A stretch of 64,000 nucleotides of DNA from an uncultured Actinomycetes bacterium (GCA_963754705.1 CAVWGZ010000005.1:162161-226160); one strand, 5' to 3'. Numbered from the stretch's first letter, positions 3,302 through 11,855 are shown. Program-made: numbers and translations. The notes: generated by a model from the sequence alone, not told the origin.

Positions 3302-3325
3302 CCGCTTCGTCTCGAACCACTGTTG

Positions 3326-3350
3326 AACGGACGCCCGATGGGCGTCCGTT
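3326..3350. terminator. bidirectional stem-loop between convergent ferredoxin and PPOX-like genes
   Basis: AACGGACGCCC-GAT-GGGCGTCCGTT forms a perfect 11-bp stem and is followed by TTTG. Confidence 0.65.
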
Positions 3351-3369
3351 TGCGCGTCCGCCGCTGGGC

Positions 3370-3900
3370 TCAGTGTGAGCTCGCGCTGAGATCGACTTCG
3401 CCGGCGGCGTCGAGCGGATGGCGGAGCACGTGCCACAGGGACATGCCGAGTGCGTAGGTGACGACCCGTGCCGGGAGCACGACCCGCAGGAAACAACCGC
3501 CGGCCAGGTCCAGCTCTCCGTGGGACGTGATCCGATCGAGCCGATGCGCGGCGGCGAGCCGGCCGATCTCGGGATCGTCGTTGGCGACGACGGCGGCCGT
3601 CGTCTGGAACTGGATGCTCGCCGGCGGACCGACCGGGAGCCGTCGCACGGCGATGCTCACGGCGGCGAGGCCGCACGCGGCGACGTTGCGGGCCTTGCGG
3701 CTGATGCGCGAGGTACTGATCAACAGTTCGTCGTCGACGAGTTGGTAGAGGACCGTCGCTGCGTGCGGGCGTCCGTCCGGCGTGACCGTGGCGAGCGTGG
3801 CGACCGAGCGTCGTTCGATCGCACGGCGCACCGAGCGCGGGTCGGGGCGGAAGATCGTCGGGTGGGCAGCGACGACGGGAACGGTGGAGGCGTGGGTCAT
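3370..3900 (-). CDS. pyridoxamine 5'-phosphate oxidase-fold (PPOX-class) protein
   Basis: VATLATVTPDGRPHAATVLYQLVDDELLISTSRISRKARN is typical of the PNPOx/F420-binding split-barrel fold. The start is taken at ATG 3900 (MTHAST). Confidence 0.65.
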   Translation of the reverse strand: MTHASTVPVVAAHPTIFRPDPRSVRRAIERRSVATLATVTPDGRPHAATVLYQLVDDELLISTSRISRKARNVAACGLAAVSIAVRRLPVGPPASIQFQTTAAVVANDDPEIGRLAAAHRLDRITSHGELDLAGGCFLRVVLPARVVTYALGMSLWHVLRHPLDAAGEVDLSASSH

Positions 3901-3935
3901 GCCGTCCACTCTCAGCCGTCGAATCGGCTGCGTCC

Positions 3936-4997
3936 ATGTCGATCCGTCCGCATTCCTGTGCCGATCGTCCCGGCCGGTGGCGTTGTGGTCGGTGCTCTGC
4001 AAACCTGACAGCTGTGCAGTCAGCCGGTGTCTCGGTGCCCGCCGTGGCCGAAGCGTTACGTCACATCACGATCACCGGCGTGTTCTACTGCCCGTCGTTC
4101 CTGAGGGAACCGTGGGGCGGGACGCTGCCACCGACACCGGGTTGCGTGTGGTTCCACGCCGTCACCACCGGGCGGTGCGAGCTGGAGGTCAGCGGGGAGC
4201 GATTCGAGCTGCACACCGGAGATCTCGCGCTCGTTCCACACGGCGCCGGTCACCGGATCCAGGCCGGGACACCGGCCGAGTACCCGTTGATCCCGGATCT
4301 TCCCCACGAGCAACACAGCGAGAACTACGCGGTGCTTCGTCATGGCGGCAACGGGCCGCTCACCGAGCTCGTCTGCGGCGGCCTTCGGCTCGAGCACCCG
4401 ATCGCCCGTCGACTCCTCGACGCCCTGCCGCCCGTGATCCACGTCCGCTCCCAGCGCCGATCGGCGCTCGGCGCCACGCTCGACGTGCTCGCCGAGGAAG
4501 CGCATCGCCACGACGTCGGTAGCGAAGCCGTGATCAGCCGCCTGTGCGACATCGTGGTGATCCAGGCGATCCGCGACTGGACGTCGAGCGCCGAAGCCGG
4601 CGGCTCACCCTGGCTGCGGGCGATGAGCGACTCGCAGCTCGGCCCGGCGCTCGCTGCGCTGCACGCCGACCCGGCCGCACCGTGGACGATCTCGACGCTG
4701 GCGGCGCAGGCGGCGATGTCGCGCTCGGCGTTCGCCGCCCGATTCAGCGAGATCCTCGGCCAGCCGGTGATCCGATATCTGTCCGATCTGCGGATGCAGC
4801 TGGCCGTCGATCTGCTCCATCGTGGCGATCGCAACGTCGCCGAGGTCGCAGCGGCCGTCGGCTACGAGTCGGACTCGTCGTTCAGTCGCGTGTTCAAGCG
4901 GCACACCGGCAGCTCCCCACGCGAGGCGCGTGCTGCCGGCCACGGTGGGTCCGAGCGACGTCGTGTCCTACCGCGTAACGATCAACCAAACAGTTGA
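3936..4997 (+). CDS. AraC-family transcriptional regulator with N-terminal cupin domain
   Basis: The C-terminal HTH pair reads TISTLAAQAAMSRSAFAARFSEILGQPVIRYLSDLRMQLA...VAEVAAAVGYESDSSFSRVFKRHTG. The start is uncertain, and GTG at 4035 or 4044 are plausible alternatives. Confidence 0.85.
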   Translation: MSIRPHSCADRPGRWRCGRCSANLTAVQSAGVSVPAVAEALRHITITGVFYCPSFLREPWGGTLPPTPGCVWFHAVTTGRCELEVSGERFELHTGDLALVPHGAGHRIQAGTPAEYPLIPDLPHEQHSENYAVLRHGGNGPLTELVCGGLRLEHPIARRLLDALPPVIHVRSQRRSALGATLDVLAEEAHRHDVGSEAVISRLCDIVVIQAIRDWTSSAEAGGSPWLRAMSDSQLGPALAALHADPAAPWTISTLAAQAAMSRSAFAARFSEILGQPVIRYLSDLRMQLAVDLLHRGDRNVAEVAAAVGYESDSSFSRVFKRHTGSSPREARAAGHGGSERRRVLPRNDQPNS

Positions 4998-5043
4998 CGA
5001 TCGCCGGTGGCCTCGGTACGGTGACCATCAACCAGACGGTTGA
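4982..5043. promoter_or_regulatory. two copies of a 16-nt inverted-repeat box upstream of arsR (candidate ArsR operator)
   Basis: TCAACCAAACAGTTGA lies at 4982-4997 and TCAACCAGACGGTTGA at 5028-5043, 16 nt before the arsR GTG at 5059. Confidence 0.4.
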
Positions 5044-5058
5044 GGGAACTGAATCGAC

Positions 5059-5448
5059 GTGAGCAGCCAGTCCACCACCGACCCGCTCGACGGAGACCAG
5101 CGCGTGTCGCGGGTGTTCGCCGCCCTCGGCGACGACACCCGACGCACCCTCGTCACCCGCCTCGCCGCAGGAGATGCCACGGTGGGCGAGTTGGCGAAGC
5201 CTTGTGCGATGTCGTTGCAGGCGGTGTCGAAACACCTCGCAGTGCTCGAATCGAGCGGTCTGGTGACCAAGACCAGAGACGGCCGCGAATGCACCGTCCA
5301 CCTCGAAGCAGAGGTGCTCGACCTGATGACCGCATGGATCGAGCGCTACCGGCGACGCGCCGAGGCGCGCTACCGCCGCCTCGACGACCTCCTCGACGAG
5401 ATCAACGATCGCCCACAGACCAACGACGACAAGGAGCAGTCAGCATGA
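5059..5448 (+). CDS. ArsR/SmtB-family transcriptional regulator
   Basis: VFAALGDDTRRTLVTRLAAGDATVGELAKPCAMSLQAVSKHLAVLESSGLV is a winged HTH. Confidence 0.85.
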   Translation: MSSQSTTDPLDGDQRVSRVFAALGDDTRRTLVTRLAAGDATVGELAKPCAMSLQAVSKHLAVLESSGLVTKTRDGRECTVHLEAEVLDLMTAWIERYRRRAEARYRRLDDLLDEINDRPQTNDDKEQSA

Positions 5449-5939
5449 CCACCCACCGGACCAGCGAAGCGACGATCGAGGCCGACCCGGCCCTGCCGAT
5501 CATCCGCATCACCCGAGACTTCCACGGCACCGTCGCCCAGCTGATGGCCGCCCACATCGACCCCGAGCTCTTCGTCCGCTGGGTCGGCCCGGACGGGCTC
5601 GAGACCAGGATCGACCGGTGGGACGCCCGAGACGGTGGTGAGTGGCGCTACACCGCCGTTGCCGATGGCACCGAGCACCGGTTCCGAGGCTGCTTCCATC
5701 AGCTCACCGACGATCGGATCGTCCAGACCTTCACCTGGGAAGGCCAACCCGACGAGGTCTCGCTCGAGACGCTGTGGTTCGAGGAGCTCGACGACGGCAC
5801 GACGCGGCTCCACGCCCAATCGCTCGTCGACAGCTTCGACGGCCGCGACGCCTGGTTGGCGTCCGGTATGGAGATCGGCGTCAACGAGGGGTACGCCAAA
5901 CTCGACGCCGTCCTCGCCGACCACGCCGCCAGGCAGTGA
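5445..5939 (+). CDS. SRPBCC / AHSA1-domain protein
   Basis: ATGA overlap with arsR. IRITRDFHGTVAQLMAAHIDPELFVRWVGPDG...FTWEG fits the family. The arsR + Aha1-like pairing is common. Confidence 0.75.
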   Translation: MTTHRTSEATIEADPALPIIRITRDFHGTVAQLMAAHIDPELFVRWVGPDGLETRIDRWDARDGGEWRYTAVADGTEHRFRGCFHQLTDDRIVQTFTWEGQPDEVSLETLWFEELDDGTTRLHAQSLVDSFDGRDAWLASGMEIGVNEGYAKLDAVLADHAARQ

Positions 5940-5950
5940 GCGACCCGCTG
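5930..5950. repeat. left copy of 21-bp perfect direct repeat CAGGCAGTGAGCGACCCGCTG
   Basis: Identical to 9504-9524. It covers the stop codon of the SRPBCC gene. Confidence 0.95.
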
Positions 5951-5985
5951 CCCGACGTCGATCGCAGGGAGCCGGTAGCTCGCTG

Positions 5986-6032
5986 CTCATAGCGGTCTCA
6001 CAGGTTCGGTTCCTAGGTTCCGCCGCTATGAG
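5986..6032. other. stem-loop just inside the left repeat (10-bp perfect stem, 27-nt loop)
   Basis: CTCATAGCGG (5986-5995) pairs with CCGCTATGAG (6023-6032). The loop contains GGTTC repeats and a CCTAGG palindrome. Confidence 0.4.
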
Positions 6033-6077
6033 TCCACAGACCATCCACTGTTCGGTCGAAGGCCGAGTGAGCCTCCG

Positions 6078-7229
6078 GTGAACATCTCCACCCGGCGCAT
6101 CGTCGCCGCTCTCGTACCTCTCGCGCTGATCGCCTCGGCGTGCGGCTCGTCCGGCGACGCCACGAGCGCATCGTCCACCGTTACCACCGAGACCACCGAG
6201 ACCACCGAGACCACCGTTTCAACCGAGACCACCGAGACGACCGGTTCCACCGAGACCACCGAGACCGCCGGTTCCACCGAGCCCGCTGCGTCGATCGGCG
6301 TCGAGCGGATGTCGCTGTTCGCCGACGGTGCGCTCACCGCCGACGCGAGCATCGTCGAGTGCACGCTCGACAACGGGAGCGAGACGACCTGTTACCAGCT
6401 CGAGGTTGCGAGTCTCCCCGACACGGTCGACACGGACGGTCCGTACTGCCCGGAGACCGTCGACGACGTCGGCGGCATCTGGGTCTGGGACGGCGACGAC
6501 CCCGGCCTGTACGCGCTCGACGCCGACTTCTGGGCGATGATGGAGGCGCAAGGCTTCGAGTTCGTCGACACCGACGGCAACATCTCGATCACCGACCCCG
6601 GCGCCGGGGCGGCTGACTCGTCGGGCACCGCCAACTCGTGTCTCGAGGCGACCGCCGACGGCTCGTACCACCTCCAGGTACTGCTGCCGACCACGCCCGA
6701 GTTGCTCGACGAGCCGACTTCGCTGTCGACGATCTCCCAGGTCGGCCTGGCACTCGACGGAGTGACGATCTTCGGCGACGCGCCGTCGGTCGCCGACCGC
6801 GGCGGCCTGCCTGCGCTCGACTCGTGCGGCGGGCACATCGACCCGTCCGGCTACTACCACTGGCACTTCGGCGCCGAGTCGATCCAGTCGAACCTCGACG
6901 AGGCGGGCGCCGAGGTGACCTGTGAGATCGAACAGGACGTCGAAGCGCTGATCGGGTTCGCCTACGACGGCTATGCGATCTACGGGCCCGAGGAGGACGC
7001 GGCGATCCCGTCCGACCTCGACGAGTGCTCGGGCCATTCGTCGGAGACCGACGAGTTCGGCGAGGCGTACCACTACCACCTCACCTACGACTCCCCGAAC
7101 CTTCCCGCCTGCCGGGTCGGTGCGACCGCGGTCGGCACGCTGACCAGCCCGGACAACCCGAATGCATCGCTGCCCAGCGGCGACGGTCCTGGCGCCGGGG
7201 GCGGCGGGCCCCCGCCGCAGGGCGGATGA
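6078..7229 (+). CDS. YHYH-domain lipoprotein with Thr/Glu-rich linker
   Basis: The lipobox is LIASAC. It carries the (TTE)n linker, GGHIDPSGYYHWHF and GEAYHYHLTY motifs, and a Gly/Pro tail. Confidence 0.75.
   Translation: MNISTRRIVAALVPLALIASACGSSGDATSASSTVTTETTETTETTVSTETTETTGSTETTETAGSTEPAASIGVERMSLFADGALTADASIVECTLDNGSETTCYQLEVASLPDTVDTDGPYCPETVDDVGGIWVWDGDDPGLYALDADFWAMMEAQGFEFVDTDGNISITDPGAGAADSSGTANSCLEATADGSYHLQVLLPTTPELLDEPTSLSTISQVGLALDGVTIFGDAPSVADRGGLPALDSCGGHIDPSGYYHWHFGAESIQSNLDEAGAEVTCEIEQDVEALIGFAYDGYAIYGPEEDAAIPSDLDECSGHSSETDEFGEAYHYHLTYDSPNLPACRVGATAVGTLTSPDNPNASLPSGDGPGAGGGGPPPQGG
6183..6281 (+). repeat. 11 tandem 9-nt units (ACCACCGAG and variants) encoding TTE/TTV/STE repeats
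   Basis: Counted unit by unit. The units are in frame with the YHYH lipoprotein. Confidence 0.9.
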
Positions 7230-7230
7230 G

Positions 7231-8375
7231 ATGAGGATCGCGACATCCCCCCCGACCTCGCCGAGCCGACGTCTGGCGATCATCGTCGCGCTGTCGGCGA
7301 CCGTGCTGGCGGTCCTCGCCGGAGCTGCGCCGGCGTCCGCCCACGACTCGACCGACGGCAGCACGGTGGTCACCATCGATGCCAGTCGGGTGATCGTCGG
7401 GGCATCGGTCGGCTTCACCGAACTCGGCTTCGTCGATACCTCGGGCGACGGAGTGCTCGATGCCGAGGAGCTCGCCGACCAGGAGGCCGGCGTGGCGTCG
7501 AGCCTCGTGTCGGTCGTTCGCGACCGGGTCGAGTTGACCGTCGACGGGGAACCGGTGGAGATCATCGGCGCCGGGGTGCAACTGCCGAGCGAGTCCAGCG
7601 CCGAAGACGCCACTGCGTCGCCGTACGTGATGCTCGCGATCGCATCCGACCGCCATGACGGCGACGTCGCCGACATCGAGCTCAGCTGGGGCTTCGACCG
7701 GCCCGTCGAGCACGGTCGTGCTCTCGTCTCCCGACGGTGCCGTGACCGGCGAGATCGGGGACGACGGCACCATCTCGTTCTCGCTCGACACCTGGTCGAG
7801 CGCAACCTCGTTCTTCGATCTCGGCATCGAGCACATCCGGTACGGGCCCGACCACCTGCTGTTCCTGCTCGTGCTCACGCTGGCGGTCGCCGGCACGACG
7901 GTTTCGACTGCGACGACGAAACGCACGTTGAAGCTGGTCACCGCGTTCACCGTCGGCCATGCGTGTCAGCCTCGGACTGGCCTACTTCGACCTGATCTCG
8001 ATCCCGACGTGGGTGGTCGAACCGGCCATCTCACTGTCGATCGTCGTCGCTGCGGTGCTCGCGATCCGCGGGCGTGCCGACGAGACCCGGCCGTGGATCG
8101 CCGCCGTCGTCGGCCTGGTCCACGGGCTCGGCTTCGCATCGAGCCTCGGCGGTCTCGGCGTCGCCACCGCGCAGCGCTTCGCCGCGCTCGCCGCGTTCAA
8201 CCTCGGCATCGACGTCGCCCAGACGGCGTTCGTCCTGCTGGTCATCGGCGCGCTGTGGGTGTGCGGTCGGCTCTTCGCCGGCCGCGTCGTCTGGGTCCGC
8301 GTCGCGGTGGCGGCGAGCGCGGCCGTGTTCGGCGTCGCCTGGACCGCGTCCCGGCTCGCCGAGCTCCCGATCTGA
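7231..8375 (+). pseudogene. HupE/UreJ-type membrane protein with secreted N-terminal domain, two frame breaks (~7705-7720, ~7955-7962)
   Basis: It has a signal peptide and the EF-hand-like loop DTSGDGVLDAEEL. After that come LGIEHIRYGPDHLLFLLVL, FTVGH and VGLVHGLGFAS, spread over three frames. Each step is +1. Confidence 0.75.
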
Positions 8376-8409
8376 GCTCCCGCTCGACATCGACGTCACA
8401 GGAGATGAC

Positions 8410-9496
8410 ATGACCCACCCGACCCGACGCAGGATCGCTCTTGCTGCCGTCGCGCTGCTCGCGCTCGCGTCCTGCGGTGGCGACGACACCGCCGACCCCG
8501 CCGTCGTGACGAACAGCGGTACGACGCCGACCGACACACAGGCGACGATCGTCGACCAGCCGGCCGACGACGACTCGAGCGGTCTCGACCCCACTGCGTT
8601 CTTCGACGGTGCGCTCACCGCCGATCCCGTGACCACGGACTGCACACTCGCCGATGGCACGCGACAGCTCGTGCTACCAGCTGACGGTGGCCGGCTTCCC
8701 GTCCACCCGCGAGACGATCGGGCCATGGTGTCCGGCGACCACGTCGGACGATGCAGCCGGGATCTGGTTCGACGGCGACGCCGTGTACGACATCGACGGA
8801 CAGTTCATCCTGGACCTGGCCGACATCTACGACGACCCGACCTGGAAGCTCTACGACGACGAGGGCAACGTCTTGTCGACCGACACCTCCGAGGAGTTCA
8901 ACGACCTCGTCACCGGTGGAGCCCAGGCCGACCCCGACGCCGGTGCGGTGAATCTCTGCGTCTACGGCGAGATCGAATGGGCCGACGGTGGCGGACCGAT
9001 CGCGGCGACGGTGGAGATCCCTGTCACCCCCGTCACCGCCGCCGGCCCGATCAGCGCAACCGGCGTCGTCGGCGTCACGCTCGACGGCGTGCTGATCGAG
9101 AGCAGCGCACCGATCGATCTCATCCTCGGCAACTACACCATCGGTGCATTCGACCCCTGCGGCGGTCACGTCAACCCGCAGGAGGGCTACCACATGCACG
9201 CCACCACCGGCTGCTCGGACTCCGCCGACGACGTCGCCGACGGCGAGACGGCGATGTTCGGCTACGCCCTCGACGGCTACGCGATCCACGCGCCGTACGT
9301 CGACGGCGCCGCACCCGCCCTCGACGAGTGCAACGGGCACGCGACGAACGAACTCGGCTACCACTACCACGCCAACCAGGTCGAGAAGAACGCAGTGCTG
9401 ACCTGCTTCAGCGGCGAGACGGCGGCGACGGGAGCCGACGGCGGTCAGCGCAGTGGGCCACCGGCGGGAGGTGCCCCTCCTGAAGCCGGCGGATGA
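8410..9496 (+). pseudogene. second YHYH-domain lipoprotein, one frame break (~8663)
   Basis: The lipobox is LALASC. CTLADGT/DSSCYQLTVAG is restored by removing one base. It also has CGGHVNPQEGYHMH and ELGYHYHAN, and is a paralog of 6078-7229. Confidence 0.7.
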
Positions 9497-9503
9497 TCGT
9501 CGA

Positions 9504-9524
9504 CAGGCAGTGAGCGACCCGCTG
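9504..9524. repeat. right copy of 21-bp perfect direct repeat
   Basis: Identical to 5930-5950. It starts 8 nt after the stop of the second YHYH gene. Confidence 0.95.
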
Positions 9525-9579
9525 ATCGGTTTCAGCGCAGCTGTCGCGAGGGATCACACCCGCGACCGGCCAACGATCA

Positions 9580-10669
9580 TCACGAGCCGATCCGGATCCT
9601 GATCCGATCCGCAGCGCTCGCCGTCACCCGGCCGATGACTGCCTGTGCCGGCGTGCCGTGCGAGACCAACTGTTCGATCAGGGCGCCGACCGCCGACGGG
9701 TCGCACGACAGCACGAGCCCGCCGGAGGTCTGCGCGTCGCTGAGGAGCAGCTGGGCCGTCCGCCCGAGCGAACCCCACCCGATCCGCCCCTCGGCCGATT
9801 CGTGGTTGCGAACCGTTCCCCCGGCGACCACGCCGGCATCGAGCAGGTCGATCACTCCGTCGAGTGCCGGAACGGCGTCGGCGTCGAGCTCGATCGCGAC
9901 ATCGGAGGCTTCGGCCAACTCGAGCAGATGTCCGATCAGTCCGAAACCGGTGACATCGGTGGCGGCGTGGACGGCCCCGCCGACGCCCACCCCGACCGCA
10001 GCCGCAGCTGCCGCCGCCGAGGCGTTCAACGTGGTCATCACCGCGATCGCAGCATCGACCTGCTCTGCGGAGGCCACTCCCCGCTTGATCGCGGTGGCGA
10101 TCACGCCGGAGCCGAGCGGCTTGGTCAGCACGAGGACGTCGCCGATCCGGGCCCCGGCGTTGGTCAGGATCCGCGCCGGGTCGACGGTGCCGACCACCGC
10201 CATCCCGTACTTCGGCTCGGGATCGTCGATCGAGTGTCCACCGACGACGAGACAACCGGCGGAGCGGGCGACGGTCGCGCCACCCTCGAGCACCCGGCCG
10301 AGGACGTCGAACGAGAGCACCTCACAGCGGCCAGGCGACGAGGTTGAGAGCGAGCAACGGAACGCCGCCCATCGCGTACACGTCGGACAGCGCGTTCGCC
10401 GCTGCGATCCTCCCCCAGTCGAACGGATCGTCGACCAGCGGGGTGAAGAAGTCGGTGGTGACGACGATCGCCAGACCGTCACGGAGACGGTAGACCGCAG
10501 CGTCGTCGGAGGTCCCGAGGCCGACGAGGAGGTTGGGATCGTCGCTGGCCCCGAGCCCGGGAACGGAGGCGAGCACGGCGCGCAGGTCGGTCGGTGAGAG
10601 CTTGCAGGCACAGCCCCCGCCTCGGGAGAAGGCCGTCAGTCGGAGCGGCTCGGCGGTCGTCGACATCAC
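9580..10669 (-). pseudogene. selD: selenide, water dikinase (selenophosphate synthetase), Cys-type, one frame break at ~10322
   Basis: The motifs are [17 protein letters not shown] and GGHSIDDPEPKYG. The junction reads ...VAWPL TGA G.... Removing the T restores WPLEVLSFDVLGRVLEGG. Confidence 0.9.
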
Positions 10670-10702: not shown

Positions 10703-10796
10703 GGAGGTGTCCGAGCGCCTGGTGGGCTCCGCCGCCTTCAAAGCGGTTGGAACGGGTATCCCGTTCGGCGGGTTCGATTCCCGTCCACCTCCGCCA
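10703..10796 (+). tRNA. selC: tRNA-Sec (anticodon UCA)
   Basis: The 94-nt element pairs the acceptor GGAGGTG with CACCTCC and encodes G-CCA. The anticodon loop is CTTCAAA. It has a long variable arm (TTGGAACGGGTATCCCGTTCGG) and the T-loop GGTTCGATTCC. It lies 34 nt from the selD start. Confidence 0.85.
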
Positions 10797-10964: not shown

Positions 10965-11855
10965 ATGACGATGGTCGGACAGTCGGGGGTGAAGAAGGCG
11001 CTGACCGTCAGCGCGTTCCTCGGGCCGAGCCTGCTCGCCCTGCTCGCGTTCTCGATCGGCCCGATGGTCGGCACGGTGTGGGTGAGCCTCCAGGACTGGA
11101 ACCTGATCCGTGACGCCGAGGTTCATCGGCCTCGACAACTACCGCGAGTTGTGGGGCGACGACGACTTCCACCGGGCGTTGCTGAACACGCTCTACTACC
11201 TCGTCGGCTACCTGCCGCTCGTGATGGTCGGTGGCCTCGGCCTGGCGCTGCTGGTCAACAGCAAGCTGAAGGGCGTCGCGATGTTCCGCGCGATGTACTT
11301 CCTGCCGGTCGTGACGAGCTGGGTCGTCGTGGCCTTGCTGTGGAAGTGGTTGCTCAACCCGAGCGACGGGCTCGTCAACTGGGCTGCTCGGCCTGGTCGG
11401 CATCGACGGACCCGGCTGGTGGACGTCGCGGACGTGGGCGATGCCGTCGGTGATCCTGGCGTCGGCGTGGAAGGACCTCGGGTTCGTGATGATCATCCTG
11501 CTCGCCGGTCTGCAGTCGATCGACGAGACGCTGTACGAGGCGGCGAAGATCGACGGGGCCGGGGCGTGGCAGCGGCTGCGGTCGATCACGATCCCGATGC
11601 TGACGCCGTCGTTGTTCTTCGTCGACGGTGATCAGCCTGATCAACGGGTTCCAGGTGTTCGACCAGGTGTGGGTGATGACCGACGGCGGGCCGGCCGGTT
11701 CGTCGACCGTCGTCGTGGAGCAGATCGTGAAGAACACGTTCTCGTTCGGTCGGGCCGGGTACGCGTCGGCGATGAGCGTCGTGCTGTTCGTGATCATCCT
11801 CGTCGTCACGGCGGTGCAGATGCGGATGCAGAAGCGGTGGGTCTTCTATGGCTGA
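10965..11855 (+). pseudogene. carbohydrate ABC transporter permease (MalF/UgpA-like), 3 frame breaks
   Basis: Fragments lie in frames 0->1->2->0: SLQDWNLI / TPRFIGLDNYRELW...FRAMYFLPVVTSWVV / LLGLVGIDGPGWW...AAKIDGAGAWQRLRSITIPML / VISLINGFQVFDQVWVMT. Confidence 0.85.

Follow-up and report, generated by a model that had tools for sequence, protein, structure and literature searches.

Among insertion sequences (IS), target duplications of ~21 bp are known for a few elements: IS1630 generates duplications of 19-26 bp, and IS1634 and IS1549 generate variable ones, from tens to hundreds of bp. A target duplication of 21 bp is longer than in most IS families. Casposons combine a duplication of 14-15 bp with terminal inverted repeats. 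In mycobacteria, 5' overhangs are filled in by the end-joining pathway and then ligated. Ku/LigD end joining in Sinorhizobium meliloti was found to take up heterologous DNA where the genome carries a double-strand break, and end-joining capture was proposed as a route of horizontal gene transfer (PMC6379672). Here we analyzed a locus in a 64,000-nucleotide (64-kb) stretch of DNA from an uncultured Actinomycetes bacterium (GCA_963754705.1, CAVWGZ010000005.1:162161-226160), hereafter the window. At this locus, 3,553 bp of inserted DNA (5951..9503, + strand), assigned by homology to relatives as a fragment of a YHYH/HupE/two-component gene cluster, lies between two identical 21-bp direct repeats. 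The insertion duplicated 21 bp of its target, and the inserted DNA bears no feature of a mobile element. As the best explanation we propose the capture of a linear fragment where the target had broken with a 21-nt stagger, followed by fill-in and end joining, to which we give a probability of about 0.5.

The repeated 21-mer, CAGGCAGTGAGCGACCCGCTG, was present in exactly two copies in the window, both on the + strand: the left copy of the target duplication at 5930..5950 and the right copy at 9504..9524, each defined by exact match and comparison of flanks. No third copy was found in the window when up to 3 mismatches were allowed. The bases next to the two copies differ on both sides, and the repeat is therefore sharply bounded. 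A first-pass annotation had reported these perfect repeats, and between them only a YHYH gene, a HupE/UreJ-like gene and a second YHYH gene; exact matching, gene calls and Pfam agreed with it on both counts. The left copy includes, from an SRPBCC gene, the final base of an Ala codon, one codon each for Arg and Gln and the TGA (5937-5939), together with the first five codons of a RibD_C relic, which open with GTG at 5936.

By its length, the repeat was weak evidence against chance. The window is 68% GC and has further pairs of exact direct repeats that are unrelated to this one, namely one pair of 20 nt, three of 18 nt and eight of 17 nt, as well as inverted repeats of 19 nt, and extrapolating from the shorter repeats gives an expectation of ~0.1 unrelated 21-mer pairs per window. 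A shuffle test of CAGGCAGTGAGCGACCCGCTG addresses that particular 21-mer only. Judged against this background, the significance of the pair is carried by its flanks. The sequence searches also indicate that the 21-mer is not a dispersed repeat, a point on which the first-pass annotation had asked for a check. It had no match in IMG/VR, it was not found within 5 mismatches at ten related cluster loci, and it had one match in JGI metagenomes, inside an unrelated MFS-transporter coding region of lower GC. We rejected this last match as a second repeat locus and took it as a chance hit, which is consistent with the size of the database. With two copies in 64 kb and near-absence from the collections searched, the 21-mer lacks the many copies of a dispersed family such as repetitive extragenic palindromes or miniature inverted-repeat elements.

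The native state of the target could be read from homologues of the SRPBCC gene. The nearest ones with genomic context (L014, L015 and L016, 80-83% protein identity) all lie in an ArsR-SRPBCC-RibD_C operon, in which the RibD_C start overlaps the SRPBCC stop. At a further locus, L001, whose SRPBCC is 81% identical, the third gene is reduced to a RibD_C relic that reads MSELLVDFIASV and keeps an ATGA overlap. In the window, the GTG within the 21-mer opens the RibD_C frame, and the right copy with its right flank reads VSDPLIGFSAAV, where L014 reads MRELMVDFITSL at the equivalent RibD_C start. By alignment and comparison with L001 and L014, this stretch (9510..9545, + strand) is the native continuation of the target operon, which comprises ArsR and SRPBCC/AHSA1 (5059..5939, + strand; Pfam and homologous operons). 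RibD_C persists there as a relic of ~12 codons only; otherwise the overlapping ArsR-SRPBCC-RibD_C architecture is present. After the left copy, the same frame gives VSDPL and then an unrelated PDVDRR. As a matter of fact, the 21 nt to the right of copy 2 were identical to the L001 sequence after the SRPBCC stop at 15/21 positions (empirical P = 3e-5, that is, the share of all window 21-mers that match L001 equally well in a fixed register), versus 5/21 in the same register for the 21 nt to the right of copy 1. Deleting 5951-9524 in silico made the window colinear with L001 over the ArsR operators, SRPBCC and the 21-mer up to ~9545, with the restored target reading ...CACGCCGC, the 21-mer, then ATCGGTTTC.

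Since the flank of copy 2 continues RibD_C and that of copy 1 does not, the 21 bp are a duplication of the target. On this flank homology, the layout native left, 21 bp, insert, 21 bp, native right is that of an insertion with a 21-bp target-site duplication of the kind left by IS and DDE transposons. This upheld one of the two origins that the first-pass annotation had offered for the repeats. The same annotation had placed the insertion exactly at the stop codon: the SRPBCC TGA does lie inside copy 1, but insertion took place 11 nt beyond it, behind the fifth codon of the RibD_C relic. We also noticed that at L001 the RibD_C relic that follows SRPBCC (L001 10492-10576) is ~17 codons long, and that ArsR-SRPBCC with a shortened third gene thus occurs in two unrelated contexts.

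The flanks also bear on whether there was a single insertion at all, as the 21-mer might match by chance or the contig might be mis-assembled. Unrelated exact repeats of 17-20 nt do occur in this GC-rich window, and single-base errors are frequent in this metagenome-assembled genome (MAG), both of which speak for such an artefact. However, both target breakpoints match exactly the outer limits of one 21-nt stretch, and the sequence beyond copy 2 is homologous to the native operon, a coincidence that neither chance nor an assembler would produce. Moreover, long-read assemblers rely on overlaps of kilobases, not of 21 nt. We therefore see only a slight chance that the structure is spurious.

The first-pass annotation had envisaged a clean empty site, with SRPBCC converging on selD across a short spacer. 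The space is not a plain spacer, as the RibD_C relic overlaps SRPBCC, and a search for relatives with a single copy of the 21-mer and SRPBCC convergent on selD returned none. The only syntenic relative found, L013 (selD 75% identical in protein), is without the whole of ~3302-9579: its tRNA-Sec-selD pair is directly adjacent to the genes for the ferredoxin and the proteasome ATPase, which occupy window 3301 down to 1, with an 88-nt spacer containing a hairpin between selD and the ferredoxin gene (L013 2857-2950). By synteny, the window thus has an extra segment of ~6.3 kb that separates the ferredoxin gene from selD (3302..9579, no strand assigned), which holds PNPOx-like, AraC, ArsR and SRPBCC genes, the RibD_C relic and the insert. 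With a single relative, gain in the window versus loss in L013 is not polarised. The spot downstream of selD/tRNA-Sec looks, from this comparison, like a variable islet. Two more distant selD relatives (L018 and L019) were tried as guides to the ancestral state and set aside, being non-syntenic and uninformative.

We then traced the origin of the inserted DNA. A scan of GTDB genomes with YHYH1 returned ten loci, which lie in MAGs of Ilumatobacteraceae, Microthrixaceae and other Acidimicrobiales; one long-read soil project supplied many of them. The window shares ~80% DNA identity with these cluster relatives over 6311-9416. The conserved cluster runs YHYH0-YHYH1-HupE-YHYH2-OmpR-type response regulator-histidine kinase, and the window keeps its middle three genes: YHYH1, which carries a YHYH domain and is predicted to be a lipoprotein (PF14240; 6078..7229, + strand; gene calls, Pfam and relatives), a HupE_UreJ_2 membrane protein (PF13795; 7231..8375, + strand; Pfam), and YHYH2, a second predicted YHYH-domain lipoprotein (8411..9496, + strand; gene calls and Pfam). 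Comparison with the relatives thus indicates that the insert is a promoter-bearing internal fragment of an ordinary chromosomal cluster of six genes. It is not a self-contained cassette, and the notion of a mobile three-gene unit that recurs as such had to be abandoned. The closest YHYH2 homologues among 5.8 billion proteins, the source's own entry aside, showed 73-83% protein identity, which indicates that no recent donor lineage has been sampled. The cluster itself varies in architecture, with one to three YHYH paralogues among its relatives (L003, L005, L006, L007, L008, L009, L010 and L011), a two-component pair that lies downstream or inverted upstream, and no YHYH2 in L007. Cluster DNA is up to 84% identical among relatives, yet their neighborhoods share no genes, and no flanking gene was common to the window and the cluster relatives.

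The right end of the insert could be defined to the base. The window reads TGA TCGTCGA where L006 reads TGA TCGCCGA, and homology halts exactly at the 21-mer, while the relatives continue past that point with GGTGGGTTGAATGG into the regulator gene. The insert thus ends 7 nt past the YHYH2 stop, at a position 10 nt before the regulator start in L006; the repeat begins at the eighth base after that stop, which corrects the 8-nt distance of the first-pass annotation by one. This end bears on att-type integration, the second origin offered by that annotation. The insert would then be a decayed or cis-mobilisable island, the 21-bp core being the SRPBCC 3' end and the integrase being encoded elsewhere. 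Identical direct repeats of ~20 bp that leave a gene with its own 3' end are indeed typical of attL/attR, and the two 21-bp copies are identical. However, the 7 nt between the YHYH2 stop and the right repeat are native cluster sequence, as in L006. As native homology runs up to the right 21-mer, there is no room for att arms, and no arm DNA was found beside the right core. What was inserted is a truncated operon rather than an element. In addition, neither an integrase nor an excisionase was found in the insert, no tyrosine or serine recombinase was found between 3302 and 10800, no tRNA lies at either junction (tRNA-Sec is 1.2 kb away, past selD), and the core was found neither in an attP nor at other loci (IMG/VR, related cluster loci and, one chance match aside, JGI metagenomes). 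We consider att-type integration very unlikely.

Other signs of mobility were equally lacking. In agreement with the first-pass annotation, the insert showed no transposase or integrase domain, the domains detected by Pfam being YHYH and HupE_UreJ_2 alone, and a repeat search found no terminal inverted repeats that pair the sequence from 5951 with that ending at 9503. No integron attC was found: the 7 nt between the YHYH2 stop and the repeat contain no imperfect palindrome, and there is no integrase nearby. The full clusters of L003, L006 and L007 had no flanking repeats beyond background 10-13-mers, and no mobility gene was found within 10 kb of the L006 cluster. No second copy of the cluster was found in the window, nor multiple copies with the same ends in the window or in the relatives' clusters. 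The cassette was absent from PLSDB plasmids, the only match being 140 nt of YHYH in a Pseudooceanicola plasmid. Base composition across the segment showed no anomaly.

These results also bear on two readings in which an enzyme acting in trans made the duplication. In one, the insert would be a non-autonomous cassette moved on cryptic ends by a transposase that makes long duplications. A target duplication is the classical footprint of transposition, and this speaks in its favor. Against it, the insert has neither terminal inverted repeats nor a transposase, its ends are ordinary cluster sequence, and the relatives' clusters have no flanking repeats; we therefore regard it as quite unlikely. 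The other invokes an undescribed integration machinery in Acidimicrobiia, for instance a Cas1- or casposase-like or other ruler-type integrase. It would act in trans, require no end sequences and integrate operon fragments that are arbitrary and carry a promoter. The duplication of 21 bp, which extends over two turns of the helix, could be its footprint. If such a machinery existed, the differing neighborhoods of the YHYH/HupE clusters in relatives would reflect the same process. We give it a slighter chance than any other reading considered here.

The left end of the insert lies upstream of the first intact gene. The insert starts with CCCGACG immediately to the right of copy 1, and a conserved motif begins 36 nt inside it. 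The region with the putative promoter and leaderless start of the first cluster gene (5987..6035, + strand) is 76% identical to L006 8774-8822 and contains CA(C/T)AGCGGTCTCACAGG, a -10-like TAGGTT (6014-6019) and an ATG at 6028. Upstream of their first YHYH gene, the relatives have CACAGCGGTCTCACAGG, ~9 nt, (C/G)TACGTT, 7-8 nt and ATG (equivalent to window 5987-6030; L006 8774-8817, L003 9307-9350, L007, and L010 9611-9623). Conservation and position suggest that this motif is a leaderless-type promoter, and the region may include a site for the cluster's OmpR-type regulator. At 6028..6081 (+ strand) lies a 17-codon open reading frame whose TGA overlaps the GTG start of YHYH1. This YHYH0 relic holds ~6 codons of YHYH0, of which ~1.1 kb is missing; global alignment is unreliable for the deletion endpoints outside the 49-nt promoter block.

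Driven by its promoter, the three-gene unit of the insert is probably still active in extracytoplasmic metal binding and import, a function drawn from the HupE/UreJ family name only. We found nothing functional on the YHYH domain in the literature. A consensus scan for promoters and terminators found nothing, such a scan being ill-suited to GC-rich actinobacteria. Rfam returned nothing for the 127-nt leader, whose fold is unexceptional (z = -1.75). A riboswitch or operator in the leader was considered and dropped, as a 10-bp inverted repeat (5986-5995 / 6022-6031) is not kept in relatives. Just past the YHYH1 lipobox, a 9-nt periodic repeat, ACCACCGAG, runs for 12 units (window 6148-6300) and encodes a TETTETTE linker.

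Some reading frames in the region were broken, and we asked what this meant for the structure. Relative to L006, the insert has three single-base insertions, which break HupE twice (~7698 and ~7963) and YHYH2 once (~8661). The selD gene (~10326) and a sugar-ABC permease gene (10965-11855) are also frameshifted in the window. When core genes were compared with those of L013, indels of a single base appeared every 400-800 bp in either record, and the same breaks are present in database proteins of the source itself (P0121 and P0241). The single-base indels are thus most likely consensus errors of a long-read MAG. We rejected the idea of a decaying pseudogene cassette, as conserved core genes show a similar indel density. 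Consensus errors of this single-base kind cannot create the insertion structure.

How could an arbitrary piece of a cluster come to lie between two copies of its target? From the product we infer a staggered break, its fill-in and the end-joining enzymology. A linear piece of 3,553 bp would have been cut from a chromosomal cluster of six genes (YHYH0-YHYH1-HupE-YHYH2-response regulator-histidine kinase), keeping its own promoter. The target would have been opened by a break staggered by 21 nt, at the overlap of the SRPBCC stop and the RibD_C start. Both overhangs would then have been filled in and the fragment ligated between them, which would yield the 21-bp direct repeat. The joining would be illegitimate and not site-specific, carried out by Ku/LigD-type end joining or by an equivalent fill-in and ligation. 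The two breakpoints of the target bound one and the same 21-nt stretch, and the simplest account is therefore a staggered break of that length whose overhangs were filled in. The right junction has zero microhomology, the insert ending in ...TCGTCGA and the target upstream of the 21-mer in ...CGCCGC. This junction thus has neither homology nor element ends, as in end-joining capture.

The same junction helps to weigh template switching, by fork stalling and template switching (FoSTeS) or microhomology-mediated break-induced replication (MMBIR). In that case a nascent strand would have departed from the SRPBCC/RibD_C junction, used 3.55 kb of cluster sequence elsewhere in the cell as template, re-entered the target 21 nt upstream of its point of departure and copied these 21 nt again. 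The product would be identical (native left, 21, copy, 21, native right), again without element ends, and the choice of an arbitrary sub-fragment of the cluster would be accounted for. However, the right junction has no microhomology, and it fits blunt ligation better than microhomology-primed template switching. In addition, the window contains no second copy of the cluster from which to copy, and the closest sampled YHYH2 relative is only 73-83% identical in protein. Template switching is therefore unlikely, though not negligible.

End-joining capture at a staggered break thus remained the best explanation, and most of the uncertainty in our figure of 0.5 lies in the enzymology. Several points weigh against it. 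The captures described in S. meliloti had mutations, mainly deletions, at both ends, and duplications are never mentioned (PMC6379672). A stagger of 21 nt is unusual, and the sequence gives no sign of its cause. The presence of ku and ligD is assumed, only 64 kb of the genome being in view. Microhomology was assessed at the right junction only, as the donor of the fragment is unsampled. No genome was found that carries the operon without the insert. Finally, the case stands alone and comes from a long-read MAG that has ~1 single-base indel per 400-800 bp.

Around the site, the genes are laid out as follows. The AraC gene (3936-4997; gene calls and Pfam) precedes ArsR (5059-5448, + strand), which has an ArsR helix-turn-helix domain, and SRPBCC/AHSA1 (5445-5939, + strand), whose TGA lies inside copy 1; by gene calls and Pfam, the latter two are intact. 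Upstream of arsR, two palindromic sites of the form TCAACC-N4-GGTTGA (window 4976-5040) are kept in L001 (~9530-9600) and are probably ArsR operators; the first of them overlaps the AraC stop codon. On the other side of the insert, selD (9580..10669, - strand, with its one frameshift) marks the right boundary of the variable segment. Between the RibD_C relic and the selD stop lies a hairpin, GTCGCG-N12-CGCGAC (9541-9564), which may be a shared terminator of the convergent genes. The active-site motif of selD, at its N-terminus (window 10615-10630), is GGGCACK, with Cys instead of selenocysteine. The tRNA-Sec gene (10703-10796, + strand) lies beyond selD, directly upstream of it and in the divergent direction.

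Collectively, these data indicate that the observation is real and is most likely a single, unusual footprint of illegitimate insertion. Natural bacterial insertions that depend neither on specific ends nor on homology are seldom found with their two junctions preserved. In this case the target could be rebuilt base by base, the insert could be traced to a larger cluster, and the length of the duplication, 21 bp, sets the geometry of the proposed break. If the structure were confirmed by raw reads and found to recur in other genomes, it would count as evidence from nature that functional operon fragments, together with their promoters, are moved by illegitimate capture in Actinomycetota, a process so far shown in laboratory assays only. 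If it proved to be a single case, it would be merely a well-documented indel.

Set against known systems, the locus resembles each of them in part. With integrative and cis-mobilisable elements it shares identical direct repeats of ~20 bp and a target gene whose 3' end is left whole by one of them, but it has no integrase, no arms and no element-specific DNA, and its repeat was found nowhere else. As with IS1630, IS1634 and IS1549, a direct target duplication of ~20 bp flanks the insert, whereas those elements have a transposase and terminal inverted repeats and the insert consists of cluster genes only. Casposons are similar in being multi-kb inserts with a duplication longer than is typical of DDE transposons; unlike them, the locus has no Cas1 and no terminal inverted repeats, and the length of the duplication differs. 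A templated insertion by MMBIR would likewise bring in a distant segment and leave a short target duplication, but junction microhomology is expected there and none is seen at the one readable junction here. Ku/LigD capture in S. meliloti involved I-SceI cuts and mutated ends, mainly deletions, in contrast to the 21-bp duplication found here. It nevertheless offers the counterpart to the capture that we propose, in that a fragment without end sequences or target homology is joined into a chromosomal break and no element-encoded enzyme is needed.

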